A stretch of 64,000 nt of DNA from a bacterium (lineage in GTDB: Bacteria > UBA8248), in NCBI GenBank assembly GCA_965202625.1, contig CBDBBI010000010.1, positions 2,752,001 to 2,816,000 on the forward strand, written 5' to 3'. Below, one piece after another: positions 48,561 to 62,518 of the stretch. Each line of letters opens with the position of its first letter. Position 1 is the stretch's first letter. The notes below the pieces were generated by a model. That model had not been told where the DNA came from. It made no database searches and worked only from the letters and a program-made list of their open reading frames with translations. Both the position numbers and the translations under genes were made by a program.

Positions 48561-49574
48561 TCAATATGTTACAGTCACAAGGACTGTGTCCCTATAGGTT
48601 CCGGTCCCCGGCGTTGGCTGTGGGGGTACCCGGCCATATCCTGTGTAAGATTGGGGCGAACCATCGCCTCTGCCGGATTGGGTGTTGACGCCAATCGTGT
48701 CTCCCCACGGTAAGGTGCGTGCGGCGTCCTGGTAGATCGCGTAGGTGATCTCTTCTCCGGCCCGTCTCATTTTGCGCAATTCCGGGTTAACGGCCCCGCT
48801 CATGCCGCCACTCAGGCCGATGGAATAATCTACGCCGAAGGTGCAGGTCACATCAATGGAGTTTGTGGTATCAACGTTCGCATCCAGCAGGCCCTCGGTG
48901 CCGAAATCCATTCTGGACGCCGTGACCCTGCACGTTGCGATATTTTGGGCTTCCACCGTGAAACCCGGCCGAGTGCTGAACGTGCTGTCTCCTACCTCGC
49001 AAACGGTCGCCCTGTTGAATCCATAGGTAGTGAAGGTGTGAGTCATGCCAGCGAAAATCGAAAGGTAGCGGCCAGCGGGCAGCCTGGGTTGGTCGTTAGC
49101 GATTTGATAACGCATGACCCGGGCTACGCTGCCTATGCCTTGTGAATTGAGAAGGACCTCGACTATTGGCGGTCTCAGCCCGCCAAGGCCCGTGAGGAAC
49201 GAGCCCCAGCTAGTGGTATGCTCGGCATTCTGGAACAAGCCGTAACGCATCAGATGTCTGATACCCGGCGGGAGGTCTGGCCCCCGCATACGCCGCGGAT
49301 GGCCGCTCGGTGCGGGGCCGCCGCCTCCGGGTCCGATATTCGGACACACGTAAACCGTCCGTCCCGCGTTTACGACCCCGCCGGTGCAGCGTATGTTCAT
49401 GTTTCCCGTGGTTCGGTACCGCTGGCGGAGGGTGACGTCGATCGGCCCGAAATCGATATCATCAATACTGATCTGACAGTTCTGGGCACTGGCCCGATCC
49501 GCGGACGCGATGATCAGCAGACCGGCGAGTACGCACATCGCGGTCGCCTGCAGAAGCAGAACCTTTACAGACAT
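48561..49574 (-). CDS. Csu-type pilus tip adhesin with two spore coat U domains (CsuE-like)
   Basis: Signal peptide, two C...(I/M)DFG domains and terminal YGRVP...GTYRDTVLVTVTY. Confidence 0.85.
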   Translation of the reverse strand: MSVKVLLLQATAMCVLAGLLIIASADRASAQNCQISIDDIDFGPIDVTLRQRYRTTGNMNIRCTGGVVNAGRTVYVCPNIGPGGGGPAPSGHPRRMRGPDLPPGIRHLMRYGLFQNAEHTTSWGSFLTGLGGLRPPIVEVLLNSQGIGSVARVMRYQIANDQPRLPAGRYLSIFAGMTHTFTTYGFNRATVCEVGDSTFSTRPGFTVEAQNIATCRVTASRMDFGTEGLLDANVDTTNSIDVTCTFGVDYSIGLSGGMSGAVNPELRKMRRAGEEITYAIYQDAARTLPWGDTIGVNTQSGRGDGSPQSYTGYGRVPPQPTPGTGTYRDTVLVTVTY

Positions 49575-51985
49575 TGCACAGGGCCTATTACGACCTGGGC
49601 GTTCTCTTGAGGCCGATATGGGAAATGCGCTCTGCACGTTCCCTGGTCGAGTTCAACAACAACGCCATTGGTGGCGTCAAGTCTTTGGATGAACGCCATT
49701 CCATCATATCCTATCACGAATTCCTCGCCTGTGCCGTCAACGGCGCCGGTCGAGCCGGCCGGCAGATGGTTGCCGCCGGCATCGGTAAATATGATCACCG
49801 CTGAACGGGTCTGGGTATCCACGTTGAACTCCACCACGACACCGGCGCGATCCGCAGGCGCCACATGTTTCGTGGTTTCCGGTATATGGGCGTTGATCGG
49901 CAGGTCATCTATGTCGATCTGGATTTTATTTTTCTCATAGGAAAGCAAGCCCGGCACCAGCATCTTGCCATCGGAGCCGGTTTTGCCTCTTCTCCGGTTG
50001 GCAAGCCGAACCGGCACGTCAGGGGCGCCCGCATCGACAATCGCAAAGGCATCGTCAATCCGGGGGGAGAAGAATATGCCGCCGCCGGCAACGGCAATGG
50101 CCCCTTCCGCAAAGCCCGTCCCCTGCAGCGTGCCGTCGGCATCGGTAATGGTGGCTTCCATTTTGGCCGCCCTGCCGCGATAGGACAGCGCGCCGAAGCG
50201 GTTGCTGCTGTTCTCGCCCTCTGTGTTGCGCAGGCGCCAACCGAAACTGCCCGGCTGCTGGTCCAGCTGCTTCACGTAGCTTGCCGTGTAGCTGGTGCTG
50301 TCATCGCTGTTTCTGAATCCGGCTGAAGCACGGCTCCGGTCGCCGAGCACAACGGACACGCCGGCAAAAACGCTGGATGAGGACCCCTTGGCCAGATCGT
50401 TGAAAACGGTCGCGTAAAATGAATAGCGATCGGACAGAGAATGGGTATAGGTTGCCGACAGCACACGGGAGGGGTCATTGTCCCCCGTTTCAATGTTTGC
50501 GAAGCTCGCTGTGATTCCGGCGGCGATCGAGGGCAGGGGCAGGCCGATCGCCACCTGGTCAAATCTCTTTGGCACGGCGATACCGGAAAGCGAGGCAGTT
50601 GTGTCGTTTTGCTCCGTAGCGCGGCGCGCGTTCACCGATGCCAGGTCCTGAAAGTCGCCGGAGGTTCGCTGCGAGCTGGCATGGATCGACAGCCCGGCAA
50701 ATTGCGTGTCCAGGGCGCCATAGAACAAGAGGCCATCCTTGTGGTCCCTTGCACGGCTGCCGGCCACCGCGCCAGAGAGAAGCAGCTGATTCGCGATTGT
50801 CACAACATACCCGACGCCGCCCTTCAGCAAGCCGTCCGTCACCTCGATATTGCTTTCAAAGGTTATCCCGTCGGTCAGGCCATAGCGGCTGCTCGCAGAG
50901 CCGAAGACGTGGGAGGAATAGTCATCGGAGCGCACGGCATAGTTTCTGCGGGTGGCGCCGATTTCGGCTGAATAGTCATGCAGTCCCTGCCGCAGGAGGG
51001 ACGGGGCGTTGTAAAAGGCAGAAGTTGTTTCGGATTCGCGGCCCGTGGCGTCCTTCACGACAACGCGCGCGACTCCGGCGCCCGAAATGGCGGGTATGTT
51101 GTTGATCTCAAATGGACCGGCTTCCACCGCTTGGCTGTGGGCTTTCACGTTTCCCACATAGACGTCCACGGTGGAGGGAACGGCGGCGCTGCCGGAGACC
51201 GAGGGCAGAGGAATGGTCAACAGATCGGGCCGCAGGGAGAAATTGCTTTGCACCTGGATGCCGCCGAAACGAACCGGCCTGCTCCAGTTGAGGCCGCCGG
51301 AGATGGAATCTCCGATGGTGTAGGTGCGCACCGCCTCGGTGTCCGAACGCGTGAGGCTGGTTTCCAGCCTGAGAAACTCTGCATCCCATTTATCGTCGGA
51401 AGAGAATATGCCGGATGAGGACAAGGTGCCGATATGGTTGAAGGCGCGGGCGTCGTAGGTAAGGGAGGCGCCGTCAAAATCCAGTGCGTTGTTGTTCTCT
51501 TCGGGATCCTCGGAGGCGGAGGCAAACAGGCCGTAATTGAAAACCAGTCCCGGATCGGCCTTGCCGACGGCTGCGCGGTCGCTTGCGCGCGCATCGTGAC
51601 GTTTGGTGATCCGCTGCCTGTCGTCAACCTTCACGTAGAGTACCTGTGTCTCTTCATCATAGCGGTAGCGCAAACCTGGAATCTCGCTGAGCATGACAAC
51701 GTCATCGCCCGTGCGACCTTGGGGCGGCTTGAGCCCAAGTCCGACAAGTTCTTTCGCCGAAACGCTCATACCGGTTGCGGGCGAATGCCAGAAGGCGGCA
51801 ATCAGACGGGTTGTCTGCTCGTTGATATAGACCTCCAGATAAAGCGGGACGTCTTGCCTGTCGTTTGTTTCGCCCGGAAAACTCCACGAGCAGAAACTCA
51901 TAAACAAGACAGAGGCGAACACTCGGCGCCAACTATCTGACCGCTTGTACCCTCGCGCTTGCCCTGATCGGTCCGATATCGCCAT
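49565..51985 (-). CDS. Fimbrial outer-membrane usher (CsuD-like)
   Basis: LYLEVYINE, GGIQ..NF.LRPDL, GSAAVPSTVDVY and FVIGYDG. Confidence 0.92.
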   Translation of the reverse strand: MAISDRSGQARGYKRSDSWRRVFASVLFMSFCSWSFPGETNDRQDVPLYLEVYINEQTTRLIAAFWHSPATGMSVSAKELVGLGLKPPQGRTGDDVVMLSEIPGLRYRYDEETQVLYVKVDDRQRITKRHDARASDRAAVGKADPGLVFNYGLFASASEDPEENNNALDFDGASLTYDARAFNHIGTLSSSGIFSSDDKWDAEFLRLETSLTRSDTEAVRTYTIGDSISGGLNWSRPVRFGGIQVQSNFSLRPDLLTIPLPSVSGSAAVPSTVDVYVGNVKAHSQAVEAGPFEINNIPAISGAGVARVVVKDATGRESETTSAFYNAPSLLRQGLHDYSAEIGATRRNYAVRSDDYSSHVFGSASSRYGLTDGITFESNIEVTDGLLKGGVGYVVTIANQLLLSGAVAGSRARDHKDGLLFYGALDTQFAGLSIHASSQRTSGDFQDLASVNARRATEQNDTTASLSGIAVPKRFDQVAIGLPLPSIAAGITASFANIETGDNDPSRVLSATYTHSLSDRYSFYATVFNDLAKGSSSSVFAGVSVVLGDRSRASAGFRNSDDSTSYTASYVKQLDQQPGSFGWRLRNTEGENSSNRFGALSYRGRAAKMEATITDADGTLQGTGFAEGAIAVAGGGIFFSPRIDDAFAIVDAGAPDVPVRLANRRRGKTGSDGKMLVPGLLSYEKNKIQIDIDDLPINAHIPETTKHVAPADRAGVVVEFNVDTQTRSAVIIFTDAGGNHLPAGSTGAVDGTGEEFVIGYDGMAFIQRLDATNGVVVELDQGTCRAHFPYRPQENAQVVIGPVQCL

Positions 51986-52655
51986 TTGCCTCGATCTTTA
52001 CTTGACTGCCTTTACGCAACTGACCGCGGATGCCCCAACGAACCTTGGAGCCGCCCAATATGTAGCCAACCAGCCCGTCGCTGAACAAGACGGGCGCTCC
52101 TGTCGTAGGTTTGACCTTCAATCCGGCAACGCGAACGCGCCGGTCCCCAGAGTTCCTGGCGGTGACGAACACTTGTTCCCCGCGCTGTTCCACCCTCCAG
52201 GACAAGCGTGGAACAGCGCCTCGGCTGACGCCGAAAAACACGGGAACCGAATACCGCATCAGCAGGTTTACCGACACTCCGCTTTTGCGTTTGCGCGTGG
52301 GCAGCTGATCAATGATCAGGCGGTAATTCTCCTCTCGCGCCAACGGGGCCTTGCTCACCCGCACGATGCGGATGGTGGAATTGCTGGTCGGCCTCAGCCT
52401 GGCAAAGGGTGGGCTCGCCACCACGTCGCGGGTGGGCATCAGCTTGTCCTTGCCGTTGCCTTGCGTCCATTTGAATATGCGCACCTGGACGTCCAGACGT
52501 TCATTGCCCAGGTTGCGCAGGGCGATCCTTGAGGCCGCACCGGGTTTTGGCACTTCCACCAGAACCGGCGCGACTTGCAAGGTTGCCGCACCGGCGCTCA
52601 GGGCCGAAACCAGCATAAAAGCCGCGCTCAAGAACAAAATGACTGAATTCCGCAC
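51933..52655 (-). CDS. Pilus assembly chaperone (CsuC-like)
   Basis: QVRIFKWTQ, VASPP, EENYRLIIDQLP and RYSVPVF. Confidence 0.9.
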   Translation of the reverse strand: MRNSVILFLSAAFMLVSALSAGAATLQVAPVLVEVPKPGAASRIALRNLGNERLDVQVRIFKWTQGNGKDKLMPTRDVVASPPFARLRPTSNSTIRIVRVSKAPLAREENYRLIIDQLPTRKRKSGVSVNLLMRYSVPVFFGVSRGAVPRLSWRVEQRGEQVFVTARNSGDRRVRVAGLKVKPTTGAPVLFSDGLVGYILGGSKVRWGIRGQLRKGSQVKIEANGDIGPIRASARVQAVR

Positions 52656-52703
52656 CAGAGGATTCTCGTATTCTCGGCAGGTTGTACTGCTAAATTTTCG
52701 CGC

Positions 52704-53219
52704 CTAGTATGTAAGGGTCACGGTGATCGTGTCTTCATAGTTCCCCGGCCGTGGCGTATCTTGCGCGGGTACTCGGCCATACACGGTGTGCGTTTGAAGC
52801 GTGCCATTGCCGGTCGCCGATTTCTGCTCACTGTCGGCTATCTCGCCCCAGTTCACGGTCCGGGCCGCGTTCTGGAACATTTGATATTCCACCGTTTCCG
52901 TGCCGCTTGTGCGTTTCATCAACCGCGTGGTTGTTGTGGCACTGGCTGTTGTGCCTTCATTCAGCTCTATCTCATAGGGTGTGGTGTCGGCGCACTGGAT
53001 CGTGATATCCGCCGAGGCATCCATATTGGCGTCCAGTACCCCTGCCGTGCCGAAATCCAATACCTCGGTCGATACGATGCTGCAATCGCTCTCGATCGTG
53101 ATGCGCGCGGTGAACGTATCGGTGGCCGTGACGGCATGGGCTATTGTCGCAAGAGCCAGTGCACAACACCACACTGCCGCGCCCTTGTTGAAGCAACTGC
53201 GAATATAGTTGCACATCAA
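52704..53219 (-). CDS. Csu-type major pilin with a spore coat U domain (CsuA/B-like)
   Basis: Signal peptide, C...LDFG and VYGRVPAQ...GNYEDTITVTLTY. Confidence 0.88.
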   Translation of the reverse strand: MMCNYIRSCFNKGAAVWCCALALATIAHAVTATDTFTARITIESDCSIVSTEVLDFGTAGVLDANMDASADITIQCADTTPYEIELNEGTTASATTTTRLMKRTSGTETVEYQMFQNAARTVNWGEIADSEQKSATGNGTLQTHTVYGRVPAQDTPRPGNYEDTITVTLTY

Positions 53220-56720: not shown

Positions 56721-57635
56721 ATGACTGTCGTGCCTCCCATAAAATCCCAGGGGATCAAGACGAAACTTGCGGAATGGATTGCGGAGTGCGCAAGGGAGCG
56801 AGGGTTTGATAGATGGGTAGAGCCTTTTTTGGGGACGGGTGCGGTCGCATTCAACGTCCGCCCGAAAAGGGCGCTGCTTTGTGACAGCAATCCGCATGTA
56901 ATCGCGTTTTATACATCCGTCCAGATGAAAAAAATTACAGGCGACGCCGCAAAAAGCTTTCTTTACAGGGAGGGGGAGAAACTCTCAAAAAGCGATGGCG
57001 CCTATTATTACGACGTCAGAGACCGCTTCAACGCGTATGGAAACCCGCTTGATTTTCTTTTTCTGAACCGCTCCTGTTTTAACGGGATGATGCGTTTCAA
57101 CAAAAATGGTGGATTCAACGTTCCTTTTTGCAAAAAGCCCCGGCGCTTCCGCCCGTCTCTCATCACGAAAATCACGAATCAGATCGCAATGGTCTCGCGC
57201 ATCATCGAGGAGGGAGACTATACGTTTCGGCATCAGGCGTTCCGGCAGACTTTGGCGGAAACCAGGGAAGGGGACATCGTATATTGCGACCCTCCATATA
57301 TTGGCCGCCACGTCGATTATTATGATTCATGGTCGGAAGGAGAAGAGACCGCACTCCACGATGCGTTGGCAGGTTCTCGTGCGGATTTCATCGTGTCCAC
57401 TTGGCTGAAAAACAAATACCGCACCAACGATCACGTCTTTTCTCTTTGGAAAGATTGCGCGATCGCCGTGAAAAAGCATTTTTATCATGTGGGAGCAAAG
57501 GAGGAGAACCGCAACGCCGTATATGAGGCGCTGCTCACGAATTTTGCTGCGCCCTTCTCCCAGCCTGTGAAGGCACAAAAAGGCGGGGGCGATCGCACCG
57601 CCCAGGTTTTTGTGGGTGAGGCATCCATCTTATAA
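56721..57635 (+). CDS. Dam-family (D12) N6-adenine DNA methyltransferase, M.EcoRV-like
   Basis: VPPIKSQGIKTKL, EPFLGTG, LNRSCFNG, FNVPFCKK and YCDPPY. An alternative GTG start at 56703 overlaps the amidase stop. Confidence 0.9.
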   Translation: MTVVPPIKSQGIKTKLAEWIAECARERGFDRWVEPFLGTGAVAFNVRPKRALLCDSNPHVIAFYTSVQMKKITGDAAKSFLYREGEKLSKSDGAYYYDVRDRFNAYGNPLDFLFLNRSCFNGMMRFNKNGGFNVPFCKKPRRFRPSLITKITNQIAMVSRIIEEGDYTFRHQAFRQTLAETREGDIVYCDPPYIGRHVDYYDSWSEGEETALHDALAGSRADFIVSTWLKNKYRTNDHVFSLWKDCAIAVKKHFYHVGAKEENRNAVYEALLTNFAAPFSQPVKAQKGGGDRTAQVFVGEASIL

Positions 57636-57683
57636 TTGGGGTTTGTTTTGACGCCGATTCCCCCAGCATGAGGATATAGGAAT

Positions 57684-58529
57684 ATGACGCCAGATGATGG
57701 TTCCGTGCTCGTCTCGACGGCGTGGCTTTCCGAGCGCCTGGAAAGCCCGAATCTTCACGTGATAGAGGTTTCCGCATCCAGCGATTACGCCGGATACGGA
57801 AAGGCCCACGTTCCGGGGGCGCATTGGTGGTTCTGGAAGGACGCCCTTTGGCACGAGACGGACCGCGCGTTCGCCGCTCCTGGAGAGATGGCGGAGCGGC
57901 TGGGCCGCAGGGGCATCAGCGCGGATGAGACCATCGTCCTCTATGGAGACCCCGTGCAGTTTGGAACCTATGCGTTCTGGGTTCTCAAGATGGCGGGCTT
58001 TGCGAATTTGAGGCTGCTTGACGGCGCCAAGAAAAAGTGGGTCGCCGAGGGTGCCCCCGTCTCGCAGGAGGCGCCGTGCCTCTGTGCCGTCCCCGGCTCC
58101 GCCGTGGGCGAGGGGGAGGAGCTGAGCGTGGGCCGGGATGACGTTCGCGCCCGTCTGGGTGATCCGGGCAGGGTGCTGCTCGACGTTCGATCTCCCGAGG
58201 AATTCAGAGGCGAGCGGGTGATGCCCCCGCCGGGCTTTGACCATGGCGCGGAACGGGCGGGGCGCATACCGGGGGCGGTTCATCTGTTTTTCCGCGAGCT
58301 GCTGAATGCGGACGACACCTTCAAGCGTCCGGAGGAGATCGAGGAAATTCTGGCAGGGGTGGTCGCCGCACCTGATGCGGTCGAGCTCGTCCTCTACTGA
58401 CGCCTGAGCCACCGGGCCAGTCTGGTCTGGTTCGCCATGCGGTATTTGCTGGGTTATAGAAACGTCAAGATCTATGACGGCTCATGGACGGAATGGGGGA
58501 GCATCGTCGGCTTTCCCATCGAGAGATGA
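57684..58529 (+). CDS. Two-domain rhodanese/sulfurtransferase (SseA-like), probable selenoprotein (TGA 58398-58400 = Sec239), 281 aa
   Basis: LVSTAWL, HVPGA, LLDG, DVRSPEEF and GRIPGA, then LY-TGA-RLSHRAS...VKIYDGSWTEW in frame. Hairpin at 58411-58431. Confidence 0.88.
58411..58431 (+). promoter_or_regulatory. Putative bacterial SECIS element (rhodanese gene)
   Basis: ACCGGGCCA-GTC-TGGTCTGGT forms a 9-bp stem with 2 G:U pairs; the loop starts with G and lies 19 nt after the TGA. Confidence 0.65.
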
Positions 58530-58557
58530 GGCGCGCCTCCCTCGCGCGGAGGATGGG

Positions 58558-59553
58558 TCAGCCGGCGGGGTAGCGTGGCTTTCCGCCTCTTAAGACGCGA
58601 AGCACGTCCGTCGCCGCCTTTCGCCTCATGTCCTCCAGGGCGGCCGTGCTGTACCATGCGCCGTGCGGCGTGATGAGGCAGTTGGACAGACCGAGCAGCG
58701 GGTGGCTTCCGGGCGGGGGCTCCTCCCGCAGCACGTCGATCCCCGCGCCCCGGATGGCGCCTTTCTCCAAAGCGGAGGCGAGTGCCCCCTCATCCACCAG
58801 TTCGCCGCGCGCCACGTTGATCAGAACGGCTTCCGGCTTCATGCGTTCGAGTGCTTGCGCACTCACCAGTCCCCTCGTTTCGGGCGTGAGGGGCGCGTGC
58901 AGGGAGACGTAGTCCGCCTCCCGCCAAATGCGCGCGAGCGGGACTTTCCGGGCGCGCAGTTTCGTGAACGCCGATTCCGCAGCGAAGGGATCTTGGGCGA
59001 TTATCCGCATTCCGAAGGCGCGCGCCTTCCTCGCCAGAGAGGCGCCGATTCTCCCGAGGCCCACGACGCCAAGGGTGGCGCCCCGAAGCGGAGCGATGGG
59101 CCGGAGAGAGGCGATTCCCCATCCGCCTTTTTTGACTTCCTCCGCCCCCTCGCCGAGTTTTCTCGCGAAGAACAGGAGCATCGCCATGGCGTGGTCCGAT
59201 ACTTCCTCGATGCAGTAATCGGGAACGAAAGCGACCTGTATCCCCTTTTCTCGCGCGGCCTGGAGGTCAACGTTGTCCACTCCCACGCCGCCGCGCGCGA
59301 GGATTTTGCAGCGCTTCAGGCGTGAGACGACCTCGGCGGTGAACTTGGGAGCCGCGCCGATGATGACGCCCTCCGCCTCCGCGCAGAGCGCGGCCAGGGA
59401 GTTCGGGTCCGCCCCCATGCCCTGGATCAGGCGGCAGCCCAGAGGGGAGAGTATCTCCTCCTCAATGGTGGGCGGCCCGAAGCGCGTTCCGGCGAGGGCG
59501 ACGATAGGGCCATCCTCCTCGCTCGGGTCTAGAGCTCTCTCAGCATTCCCCAT
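58558..59553 (-). CDS. D-2-hydroxyacid dehydrogenase (CtBP-like)
   Basis: GVGVDNVD, VPDYCIEEVSDH, GLGRIG, NVARG and TPHGAWYS. Confidence 0.88.
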   Translation of the reverse strand: MGNAERALDPSEEDGPIVALAGTRFGPPTIEEEILSPLGCRLIQGMGADPNSLAALCAEAEGVIIGAAPKFTAEVVSRLKRCKILARGGVGVDNVDLQAAREKGIQVAFVPDYCIEEVSDHAMAMLLFFARKLGEGAEEVKKGGWGIASLRPIAPLRGATLGVVGLGRIGASLARKARAFGMRIIAQDPFAAESAFTKLRARKVPLARIWREADYVSLHAPLTPETRGLVSAQALERMKPEAVLINVARGELVDEGALASALEKGAIRGAGIDVLREEPPPGSHPLLGLSNCLITPHGAWYSTAALEDMRRKAATDVLRVLRGGKPRYPAG

Positions 59554-60344
59554 TTTTGCACCGTGGCGACTTCGAGCGAGCGGAGAACGAGACGTTCGAC
59601 GGCGAAGCCCAGAAAACCGATGATGATGATGCCGCCGTAGATGACGGCGCTGTTGAGCGTCTCCTGGGCGTCGAATATCCGGACGCCCAGGCCCATCTCC
59701 GGCGAGGCGAGCAACTCGCCGGCCAGAAGCACGCGCCAGGCGCGGGCGAAGCCGATGCGCCATCCGGAGATGACTACGGGCAGTGCGCCGGGCAGCAGGA
59801 TGCGCACCAGCAGGGAGAAGCCTTTCGTCTCCATGGAGCGGGCCGCGTTCACGAGCGTTTCGTTCACGGTCTTCACGCCCACCCAGGTGTTGAGCACGAT
59901 GGGAATGCAAGTGGCGAAGGAGATGGTGATGACGACGGCTTTTTCCGTCAGTCCCCAAAAGAGAATCGTCGCCGGAAACAGGGCGATGCCGGGTATCGTG
60001 CTGAAGAAGTTCACCACGGGAACGAATATCCACTCGATGGTCCTGGAGGCGCCCATGATGACGCCCACTATCGTTCCCGCGATGAGGGCGAAAAGCAAGG
60101 AGACGAACAACCGGAGAATCGAAGTCCCCACGTGGGTGATGAGCAGGCCGTTGAGAGTCTCGTCCACCATGGTCAGAAATATCGTGTAGATGCGCGGAAA
60201 CAGGGTAGGGGGCACCAGCTCCATCCAGCTCACGAATTCCCAGAGGGCCAGAAGCAGCGCGATGGGCAGGATGTTCTCCATCAGGGCGCGGCTGAAGAAC
60301 TGGAATTTTGCCGCCCGCCCGGATTTGATCTCGCCTTGTGCCAT
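59529..60344 (-). CDS. ABC permease, nitrate/sulfonate/taurine (SsuC/TauC) family
   Basis: TM helices, LVNAARSM, LPGALP and AWRVLLAGE. Confidence 0.88.
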   Translation of the reverse strand: MAQGEIKSGRAAKFQFFSRALMENILPIALLLALWEFVSWMELVPPTLFPRIYTIFLTMVDETLNGLLITHVGTSILRLFVSLLFALIAGTIVGVIMGASRTIEWIFVPVVNFFSTIPGIALFPATILFWGLTEKAVVITISFATCIPIVLNTWVGVKTVNETLVNAARSMETKGFSLLVRILLPGALPVVISGWRIGFARAWRVLLAGELLASPEMGLGVRIFDAQETLNSAVIYGGIIIIGFLGFAVERLVLRSLEVATVQKWGMLREL

Positions 60345-60413
60345 GCCGCTCAAAAGGGTTTCTCCCCCATTTCTCTCCGGCCCATCCAGGGGCCGGAGAG
60401 GGAAAAGGTCCGC

Positions 60414-61466
60414 TTAATTGGCGGCCACCGCTTTTTCCACGAAGCGGTTGTCCACGTAATCCTCAAGGGGCGGGGCCGTCTTGATGCGTCCGAGCTTGCG
60501 CAGAATGTCCTGGTTCGCCTTCATGTCGGCTATCATCGCCGCGTCCCAGACGTGGTTCCTGAAGGCGAGGATATCGACGAAGAAGCGCGCGTCCGCCATC
60601 TCGAGCTTCTTGCCGCGTCGGGTGCTGAACGTATGGAACAGCCGGGCGGCGTCCTCCCGGTTCGCCTCGATCCATTTCTTCGCGTTCACCCAGGCGTTGA
60701 CGACCTTCTGCACCACCTGCGGGTGTTTCTGGATGAAGCTCGTGCGGGTGTAAAGCAGGAAGGGATACGGCACCTCGGCCACGCGCTCGATCTCCTTCTC
60801 GCCGATTATCTGGCGTCCCAGACCCCGGTTGAGGATCGAGCGCGCGAACGGATACCAGGGGACGGCGGCGTCGATGTTGCCGGTGCCCATGGCGGCGGCG
60901 ATTCTGGAGGTGCGGATGTAGCGCATCTTGAACATGCTCTCGTTCAGGCCGATCTTGTCCAGGTAGCGCAGCCAGGCGACGTGGGTACCCGAGCCCTTCT
61001 GAATGGCGATGGACTTGCCCTTGAGGTCGGCCATCGTCTTTGAGGTCGTATCGTCTTTTTTCACGATGACGGTGGCGAGGAAGCCCGTGTTGTTCACGGC
61101 CACCGTCTTCATGTTCCAGCCCCTTGCGGACCACTGGACGAGGCGTCCGTTCGCGGCGGTCCCAAAGTCCATGGAGCCGCCATAAACAGACGAAAGCGCC
61201 TGGGAGCCGCTTTTGAGCGGTCGGCCATTGACGTTCAGTCCCTCTTTTTTCAAAAAGCCTTTTTCGATGGCCACGAGGGGAACGATGGCCGTCGCGCTCT
61301 CTGAATAGGCCAGGCGCACCGTTTTGACGACGTCGCGCTCCTTGGCCAGGGGGGTGACTTTTTTCTTTTTTTTCGCGGCGTCGGCGCCCATCGGGGGGAT
61401 GAGCGACGCAGCGAGAAGAGCGATGACGGCGATGGAGAGATGCTTCCAGGTTCGTTTCCGCAACAT
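60414..61466 (-). CDS. ABC substrate-binding protein, SsuA/TauA/NMT1 family
   Basis: Signal peptide, AIEKGFLKKEGL, DLKGKSIA and WYP. Confidence 0.88.
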   Translation of the reverse strand: MLRKRTWKHLSIAVIALLAASLIPPMGADAAKKKKKVTPLAKERDVVKTVRLAYSESATAIVPLVAIEKGFLKKEGLNVNGRPLKSGSQALSSVYGGSMDFGTAANGRLVQWSARGWNMKTVAVNNTGFLATVIVKKDDTTSKTMADLKGKSIAIQKGSGTHVAWLRYLDKIGLNESMFKMRYIRTSRIAAAMGTGNIDAAVPWYPFARSILNRGLGRQIIGEKEIERVAEVPYPFLLYTRTSFIQKHPQVVQKVVNAWVNAKKWIEANREDAARLFHTFSTRRGKKLEMADARFFVDILAFRNHVWDAAMIADMKANQDILRKLGRIKTAPPLEDYVDNRFVEKAVAAN

Positions 61467-61564
61467 GGGCGTTCCTCCTCAAACGATATGGATTCCTGAC
61501 GACGGCTCCGAAAAAACGTTCTTCGCACTTCGCAACACCTCAGAATGGGCGCATACGCCCGTTC

Positions 61565-62341
61565 TCAGCGGTTCTCATCCTGCGTTTCGATCAGGCTGGC
61601 GAGATATCTTTCCATCTCCACGAAATCCGGTGCCAGAATGTCGCGGGGACGCTTCAAATCAATCTTCACCTCCTCGGTGATGCGGCCCGGCCGCGCGCTC
61701 ATGACGATGACGCGGTCGGCGAGAAAGGCGGCCTCGCGCACGTCGTGGGTGATGAACATGACCGTTTTTTTCGTCTTCTCCCACACGTCGACGAGCACGC
61801 GCTGGAGTGCGGAGCGCGTCTGGGCGTCGAGGGCGCCGAAGGGCTCGTCCATGAGCAGAAGTTCCGGCTCCAGGGCGAGCGCCCGGGCGATGGCCACTCG
61901 CTGGCGCATTCCGCCCGATAGCCGGTTGGGAAAGGTTTTCTCGAATCCCTGGAGCGACATGAGACGGATGTAGTGATTCGCGATTCCCTCGTGCTTGCTC
62001 TCAGGAATTCTTTTCTGCCGGACTCCGTAGAGGATGTTGGAGCGCACGTCCTGCCAGGGGAAGAGGGCGAAGTCCTGGAACACGACTCCCCGGTTGAGAC
62101 CCGGGCCCGACAGCGGTTTGCCGTCCAGCGTGATCTCGCCGGCCGACTTGGGGTACAAGCCCGCCAGAATCATCAGCATGGTGGATTTTCCGCATCCGCT
62201 GGGGCCGATGATGCAGACGAACTCGTTGTCCTGAATCTCGATGTTGACGTCGTCGATGGCGCGTATCTCGCGAACGCTGCCAAAGCCCTCGTTGACGGAG
62301 AACGTTTTCCGAAGCCCCTGAATCGAGAGTTTTGACGCCAT
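61565..62341 (-). CDS. ABC ATP-binding protein, SsuB/TauB/NrtD family
   Basis: GPSGCGKST, LSGGMRQR, MDEPFGALDAQTR and MSARPG. Confidence 0.92.
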   Translation of the reverse strand: MASKLSIQGLRKTFSVNEGFGSVREIRAIDDVNIEIQDNEFVCIIGPSGCGKSTMLMILAGLYPKSAGEITLDGKPLSGPGLNRGVVFQDFALFPWQDVRSNILYGVRQKRIPESKHEGIANHYIRLMSLQGFEKTFPNRLSGGMRQRVAIARALALEPELLLMDEPFGALDAQTRSALQRVLVDVWEKTKKTVMFITHDVREAAFLADRVIVMSARPGRITEEVKIDLKRPRDILAPDFVEMERYLASLIETQDENR

Positions 62342-62518
62342 GACAGCTCCTTGAGGCGCACTTGGACGCATCCGCCTGAAGAGCAAACGCCGACCGCGGC
62401 GAACGATTGGTGATGGACGCATTATAGGGGCGGAATGGATGGATGTAAAAGGGGGGGCCATGCGCAAGCGAAAACGCCGCGACCGAAGCGGCCGCGGCGT
62501 TCAATCGGCGAGGCGGAG

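Follow-up and report, generated by a model that had tools for sequence, protein, structure and literature searches.

A predicted selenocysteine-containing two-domain rhodanese in one genus of the bacterial lineage UBA8248

Rhodanese-type sulfurtransferases that carry selenocysteine (Sec, U) have been predicted before. The relevant passages of a 2005 survey of the Sargasso Sea (PMC1088965) list a rhodanese-related sulfurtransferase of COG2897 among new selenoprotein families, with three sequences. For a sulfurtransferase of the same COG, those of a 2007 study of Olavius symbionts (PMC1976440) give three Sec genes and four cysteine (Cys) homologues. Two reviews, from 2022 and 2026 (PMC9312934, PMC13188914), name as rhodanese-like selenoprotein forms, in the parts that deal with them, UxxS, UxxG, CxU, UxxG (a second entry) and TsoB. 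An earlier note on the DNA analysed here had remarked that Sec rhodaneses were already on record, and these four sources bear it out. Here we describe a complete predicted selenoprotein gene, coding for a two-domain rhodanese-type sulfurtransferase, at 57684..58529 (+) of a 64,000-nucleotide stretch from a bacterium of the GTDB lineage UBA8248 (assembly GCA_965202625.1, contig CBDBBI010000010.1, positions 2,752,001 to 2,816,000). This whole stretch is called the window, and plain coordinates refer to it.

To our knowledge, no Sec-rhodanese has so far been biochemically characterised. A literature search joining rhodanese, a selenocysteine active site and the selenocysteine insertion sequence (SECIS) found nothing.

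The gene itself is unannotated. In public protein sets the copies of the genus end at 237-239 residues, cover 84% of the query and miss the catalytic loop, which is the truncation that the earlier note had expected of standard annotation. These sets reduce to stumps not only this gene but also its orthologues, in 21 or more related genomes, and a second paralogue described below. As a result, two sulfurtransferases are absent from metabolic reconstructions of the lineage, and its selenoproteome is counted too low.

The read-through gene and its catalytic column

The called open reading frame runs from 57684 to 58400 (+), codes for 238 amino acids and ends with ...ELVLY followed by TGA at 58398-58400. 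As the earlier note had read it, the frame stays open past this TGA for 42 codons (RLSHRASLVWFAMRYLLGYRNVKIYDGSWTEWGSIVGFPIER); it is closed by a second TGA at 58527-58529. When the first TGA is read as U, the protein has 281 residues and the recoded residue is number 239. The TGA at 58527..58529 (+) is taken as the true terminator, given its sequence and the same end point in 21 orthologues (TGA in 9, TAA in 6, TAG in 6). The rhodanese C-terminal signature YDGSWxEW, which had been reported for the stretch downstream of the first TGA, is found there as YDGSWTEW. At the other end of the gene, a Shine-Dalgarno-like GAGGA (57670..57674, +), recognised by its letters, lies 9 nt 5' of the ATG, and no signal peptide is evident by eye at the N-terminus.

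The read-through protein matches Pfam Rhodanese in two stretches, with an E value of 6.6e-30. The best one, residues 152-272 (profile positions 3-100 of 102), spans the TGA and delimits the C-terminal catalytic domain at 58137..58499 (+). The second marks an N-terminal rhodanese-like domain at approximately residues 7-128 (57702..58067, +), which has no aligned catalytic Cys and corresponds to elements H12 to H121 of the structural model and to residues 7-128 of 1UAR. The two Pfam stretches, the end-to-end alignment and the fold match agree with the two-domain rhodanese architecture (PF00581 x2, SseA/COG2897).

The nearest solved structures are 1UAR of Thermus thermophilus, which is the best (alignment E value 3.6e-62), 8K55 of Frondihabitans, and CysA3, CysA2 and SseA of Mycobacterium tuberculosis. 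U239 aligns to the Cys of vvYCRiaeRsS (YCRIAERS) in 1UAR. An AlphaFold2 model, computed from the query with C for U aligned with 49 Cys homologues (57-65% identity), has a mean predicted local distance difference test score (pLDDT) of 87.9 and a predicted template modelling score (pTM) of 0.89. Its best Foldseek match is again 1uar, with a template modelling (TM) score of 0.82; 1uar, 3aay, 1e0c and mycobacterial enzymes score between 0.79 and 0.87. In the model, residue 239 closes strand E234-239 and is followed by helix H242-255, so that the nucleophile starts the six-residue cradle loop between the central strand and a helix.

The predicted U239 codon (58398..58400, +) is placed at the catalytic-Cys position by the homologue columns, the 1UAR alignment and strand E234-239. 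It opens the active-site loop U-R-L-S-H-R-A, residues 239-245 (58398..58418, +). In the alignment of the query and the 49 Cys homologues, Y238-C239-R240-L241-S242-H243-R244-A245 is invariant, and this invariance therefore places the protein in a distinct CRLSHRA-loop subfamily of CysA/SseA-like rhodaneses. The basic residues R240 and R244, at loop positions +1 and +5, are common to the thiosulfate-type relatives 1UAR, CysA2 and CysA3. Named members of the subfamily are labelled thiosulfate/3-mercaptopyruvate sulfurtransferase in their sources. The earlier note had put Sec at the persulfide-carrying Cys after the Tyr, with the motif YCxxGxR. The column is borne out, and the motif was too loose: the loop of this subfamily is YC/U-R-L-S-H-R and has no Gly.

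As for relatives, full-length orthologues were found in 20 of the 22 other genomes of the genus, with 72-80% identity over residues 1-281 and exactly one TGA each. In one further genome (G003) the gene lies partly on one contig and partly on another, and its C-terminal part has the TGA; the last (G017, 79% complete) holds only a 36-residue fragment, outside the TGA column. With the query's own genome included, the catalytic column is TGA in 22 of 22 genus rows, within ...[LT]LY-TGA-RLSHRASLVWFAM.

Outside the genus a different picture is seen. The phylum comprises 51 genomes in the collection; 28 of these lie outside the genus, and among the 24 that have a match at E <= 1e-45 none has TGA. The column is TGC or TGT in all 25 loci examined there, 20 of the same bacterial family and 5 of the same class. 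The two homologues with a CRIGER loop also have TGC, which brings Cys to 27 of 27 outside the genus. One partial match (G044, contig C363) has an internal TAG, and its active-site column is TGC. Alignment of homologues at this column had been proposed as a check on the Sec reading, and it shows that relatives do carry TGA within the genus (22/22) and Cys beyond it (27/27).

Reads showing a Cys codon had been named as a further check. Four public runs, which belong to two studies, have contigs with identical letters, TGA included and none that differs. This agreement adds little, because some of the runs may be the source of this DNA. Runs labelled as sponge metagenome contain the same stretch.

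The SECIS-type hairpin

The minimum free energy (MFE) fold places a SECIS-type hairpin at 58411..58431 (+), in which a 9-bp stem pairs 58411-58419 with 58423-58431 around the apical loop GUC (58420-58422). The stem begins 10 nt past the TGA and the loop 19 nt past it, which makes the loop G base +23 when the U of UGA is base +1. The hairpin described in the earlier note, with 9 bp and a G-first loop 19 nt downstream, is thus real, 19 nt being the distance from the TGA to the loop. The bacterial SECIS (bSECIS) model, as set out in the relevant part of PMC13188914, has a loop of 3-9 nt, a stem of 4-16 bp, a spacing of 16-37 nt and an MFE of at most -7.5, and it asks for a G, with G or U after it, within the first two positions of the loop. 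All four published constraints, in that description, are satisfied by the GUC loop, the 9 bp, the 19 nt and the -12.0 kcal/mol of the 21-nt hairpin alone. For this hairpin the z score is -3.34, and 2 of 200 shuffled sequences fold as well. Folding alone is weak evidence here, because the DNA is GC-rich, and the weight comes from the relatives.

A block of 30 nt that covers the hairpin (58410..58439, +; codons 243-252) reads CAC CGG GCC AGT CTG GTC TGG TTC GCC ATG and is identical, nucleotide by nucleotide, in 22 of 22 Sec orthologues. Among 135 columns with invariant degenerate residues in 21 orthologues, synonymous variation is present in 0 of 8 inside the block and in 107 of 127 elsewhere (Fisher p 1.4e-6; the limits of the block were set after the alignment had been seen, and the hairpin itself comes from the earlier fold). 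Selection was estimated by the Nei-Gojobori method on the 21 full-length orthologues, one partial row being left out, and the synonymous rate (dS) of codons 243-252 is 0. These codons vary freely in Cys homologues that encode an identical or almost identical peptide, HRA[ST]L[VA]WF. The RNA-level constraint falls exactly on the hairpin.

In the same region, the only Rfam match, to the family FsrA on the other strand, was rejected; it scores 15.7 bits against a cut-off of 80 and is at chance level.

Decoding of the UGA and its alternatives

The genome measures 3.09 Mb in 10 contigs and is 99.7% complete. A search for selA, selB, selC and selD, which had been suggested as a test, found all four above curated cut-offs: selA with 565 bits, selB with 361, selD with 333, and a single tRNA-Sec (selC) with 75.8 bits against a cut-off of 47. 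ARAGORN gives this tRNA the anticodon tca, and it is the only one with a UCA anticodon among 50 tRNAs; tRNA-Trp has CCA. TGA is the commonest terminator and closes 570 of 1128 open frames of >= 400 codons. It is not reassigned in this genome.

Two further observations concern selD and the tRNAs. The selD gene (contig C10, 1611050-1612009, minus strand) itself appears to be a selenoprotein gene, with an in-frame TGA at 1611980-1611982 within GGUGSK and a hairpin whose GGA loop begins 17 nt past the UGA. At C10:2546655-2546746, ARAGORN lists a "tRNA-???" of 92 nt whose anticodon has two bases (gc), either an odd tRNA-like element or a false call.

The UGA at 58398-58400 is very probably a true selenocysteine codon that is served by a canonical SECIS in frame, as judged from sequence comparison. 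Each test that the earlier note had named and that could be run supports its proposal of a Sec-containing transferase. Three other explanations were weighed.

Conservation of the TGA and of the frame downstream shows read-through, not the identity of the residue. The UGA might therefore be read as Cys or Trp by a near-cognate or misacylated tRNA, which would give a full-length protein without selenium. Against this stand the complete Sec pathway of the genome, a tRNA-Sec as the only tRNA with a UCA anticodon, a hairpin with SelB-type features, and TGA as the main terminator genome-wide. Furthermore, relatives have Cys at the column, which is the usual pairing of Sec and Cys. We regard misreading of this kind as very unlikely.

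A second explanation is that translation ends at 58400 and yields a product of 238 residues without the catalytic loop, while the conservation downstream is owed to an RNA element or another gene. The public gene calls, with 237-239 residues and 84% of the query for the genus, would fit such a product. The pattern of substitution speaks for a translated protein. Upstream of the TGA (codons 1-238), the ratio of nonsynonymous to synonymous rates (dN/dS) is 0.18, with a dS of 0.61. In the 29 codons past the hairpin (253-281), dN/dS is 0.055 in frame, with many synonymous changes (dS 0.74). The tail is therefore translated and strongly constrained, which is not expected of an RNA element. In addition, the residues downstream match the C-terminal helix and the YDGSWTEW of the Cys homologues, and a truncated catalytic domain would, according to the model, lose strand and helix elements of the fold. 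Termination at 58400 is extremely unlikely.

A nonsense mutation or sequencing error in a decaying pseudogene, which one genome viewed alone could not exclude, is refuted in practice by the same TGA in all 22 orthologues, which come from different species-level genomes and are 72-80% identical, by the lack of other stops or frameshifts, by purifying selection on both sides of the TGA, and by the identical letters in the four public runs of two studies, some of them possibly the source.

The genome holds a second two-domain rhodanese at C10:737729-738592, 30% identical to the first. It has a TGA at the catalytic Cys (C10:738431-738433), a loop U-Q-T-G-Y-R, and a 7-bp hairpin, ACCGUGC-GGC-GCACGGU, with a G-first triloop 17 nt past the UGA. 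All 21 loci read, 20 of the genus and one of a sister genus (genome G023), retain both the TGA and the hairpin codons, apart from single stem changes in 3. A paralogue with TGA at the catalytic Cys and a G-first triloop at a similar distance was counted in favour of Sec in the first gene.

Several points weigh against selenocysteine, against the SECIS or against the assignment of a function. The prediction of Sec at residue 239 is drawn from sequence comparison, and there is no RNA run among the public runs listed with the stretch. The 22 genomes of the genus are kin and represent one evolutionary event, not 22 independent confirmations. In the case of the hairpin, a 43-nt stretch with a weak lower stem (-17 kcal/mol, z -1.12) does not stand above shuffled sequences, and an 81-nt stretch gives a z of only -0.19. 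No covariation can be shown in the stem, all 22 copies being identical there. An Rfam scan of 57600-58650 at E <= 10 gave no SECIS family, and Rfam may lack such a model. The limits of the tested block, set with the alignment in view, belong here too. Finally, the read-through protein reaches no NCBIfam model at its curated cut-off, which leaves the substrate without a curated equivalog to define it, and neither 80 loci of distant homologues nor five loci of close Cys homologues have a conserved partner gene that points to a pathway.

If the UGA is decoded as selenocysteine, 57684-58529 would be one gene for a cytoplasmic two-domain, SseA/CysA-like rhodanese sulfurtransferase of the COG2897 type. 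SelB carrying Sec-tRNA(Sec) would bind the hairpin at 58411-58431, so that Sec is inserted instead of termination, and the ribosome would then add the last 42 residues and complete the catalytic domain. Rhodaneses work by a ping-pong mechanism. By analogy with the family, the selenolate in U-R-L-S-H-R would take sulfane sulfur from thiosulfate or a persulfide donor, form a Se-S(-) intermediate, and pass the sulfur to a thiol or a cyanide-type acceptor. In the cell the donor may be thiosulfate, 3-mercaptopyruvate or a persulfide, or the protein may itself be a carrier of selenium; the idea of a selenium carrier reportedly comes from the selenium-substituted rhodanese of Ogasawara et al. in 2001.

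Origin, surroundings and known systems

A maximum-likelihood tree was computed from 46 rows (21 Sec, 25 Cys), three partial rows being left out; this was a quick search, with the Shimodaira-Hasegawa-like approximate likelihood ratio test (SH-aLRT) as the only support measure. All Sec forms fall into a single clade (SH-aLRT 100), which branches from within the Cys forms of their bacterial family; one change of state suffices. The Sec form probably arose a single time, by replacement of Cys at the base of the genus. The sister genus also decodes Sec: genome G023 has the Sec-containing second paralogue, yet TGC in the first gene.

The groups have different residues at the hairpin top. This residue is Ser, coded by AGT, in 22 of 22 Sec forms. 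In Cys forms of the same family it is Thr (ACN) in 19 of 20 loci and Ser (TCG) in the remaining one, the partial match with the internal TAG. In Cys forms of the same class it is Ser (TCN) in 5 of 5 loci. The lower 7 bp of the stem, ACCGGGC with G[CU]CUGGU, already form around a 7-nt loop in several Cys homologues that are rich in GC.

These data are compatible with a single, recent switch from Cys to Sec at the base of the genus, open to dating and reconstruction, in which the SECIS was not acquired from elsewhere but built in place from the H-R-A-x-L-V-W hairpin of Cys ancestors and the synonymous sites were then frozen. We give this scenario an even chance. The change from Thr (ACN) to Ser (AGU) would have put G-U at the top of the loop, and neighbouring third-position changes would have lengthened or tightened the stem. 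If this is true, the Sec orthologues and the Cys orthologues of the sister genus (64% identity) are a natural matched pair for the birth of a SECIS. Such a pair could also show what Sec brings to a rhodanese, for example an altered range of donors and acceptors or a role in selenium trafficking. The chief value of the locus lies in this clean natural Sec/Cys pair; the SECIS stands frozen inside coding sequence, and sister genera show what its precursors probably looked like. A comparison of U and C enzymology is practical, since there are close Cys orthologues and relatives of known structure.

As for the surroundings, an amidase lies upstream in 19 of the 20 other genus loci and a 2-hydroxyacid dehydrogenase downstream in 15 of 20, the flanks being only 0.5-1.5 kb long. 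Within 3 kb of 80 more distant homologues, the amidase was found in none and the dehydrogenase in one. Ten open reading frames flank five close Cys homologues; three are without a match and seven belong to unrelated Pfam families (MFS, metallo-beta-lactamase fold, RecQ, desaturase, CoA-transferase, binding protein and LysR). The search for related loci that served the comparison of neighbourhoods gave only Cys-type relatives from outside the genus. A function inferred from an operon was rejected, the neighbours being syntenic within the genus only and otherwise unrelated.

In the window, a D12-class N6-adenine DNA methyltransferase (56721-57635, +; Pfam E 5.5e-43) stands between the amidase and the rhodanese gene. 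It was matched in none of the 20 other genus loci, in most of which the amidase is directly upstream of the rhodanese, and it has the look of an orphan methylase that was inserted recently. The 2-hydroxyacid dehydrogenase is convergent, at 58558-59580. Adjoining it is an NMT1/SsuA-like (nitrate/sulfonate/taurine) ABC transporter at 59529-62467 (-), with permease, binding protein and ATPase. Farther upstream, 49565-53219 (-) holds a chaperone-usher pilus cluster, composed of an usher (806 aa), a PapD-like chaperone and a subunit with an SCPU (spore coat protein U) domain. In another genome of the collection, G006, a fragment of about 27 residues just upstream of the orthologue (C8:1339655-1339738; 2592-2672 of the extracted locus) is 75-78% identical to rhodanese residues 45-72 and may be what is left of a partial duplication.

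The E. coli fdhF element serves as the comparison case for bacterial SECIS elements. With the consensus of the Zhang and Gladyshev model, the hairpin described here shares its place directly past the UGA, inside the coding region, and a small loop that starts with G-U. It differs in that its triloop is at the lower size limit and no bulged U is evident; SelB binding is predicted.

Curated protein models were tried as well, and three memberships were rejected. The SseA 3-mercaptopyruvate sulfurtransferase equivalog NF008557 aligns over residues 7-281 and has the architecture of the query, but with 81.2 bits against a cut-off of 250. The other two, NF041203 (rhodanese_LYCAU, "rhodanese-related (seleno)protein"; 37.1 bits against 115, residues 230-280) and NF040901 (ExtH; 51.4 bits against 200, residues 209-276), have a weak local likeness around the catalytic loop and the C-terminal helix. 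LYCAU is a single-domain model of 126 positions with CxU, whereas here U directly follows Y (Y-U-R) and the residue two places ahead of it is not Cys. ExtH is a lipoprotein model of 430 positions, and in the available description of the Geobacter ext cluster the selenoprotein is ExtKL, not ExtH.

Among solved Cys rhodaneses, 1UAR, CysA2/CysA3 (3HWI, 3AAX) and 8K55 resemble the query in full-length alignment (E values of 3.6e-62 to 1e-53) and in fold (TM 0.82-0.86). In them, as in the query, the catalytic residue follows a Tyr at the end of the central strand, loop positions +1 and +5 are Arg, and YDGSWTEWG is present. They differ in having Cys and a loop C-R-I-[AG]-E-R-S, where the query has a predicted Sec and U-R-L-S-H-R-A; identity is 36-39%.

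Lastly, the closest described selenoproteins are those of the COG2897 Sec family, which, like the query, combine an SseA/COG2897-type fold with Sec in place of the catalytic Cys, have Cys homologues elsewhere and, in the sources cited, are predicted from sequence only. By its architecture the gene is a COG2897 form, and so of a previously predicted kind; this likeness is drawn from table descriptions, not from sequence comparison. The COG2897 form tabulated in PMC13188914 is UxxG, whereas U-R-L-S is UxxS in that notation, and the Sec form described here occurs only in a single genus, which belongs to an uncultured lineage.

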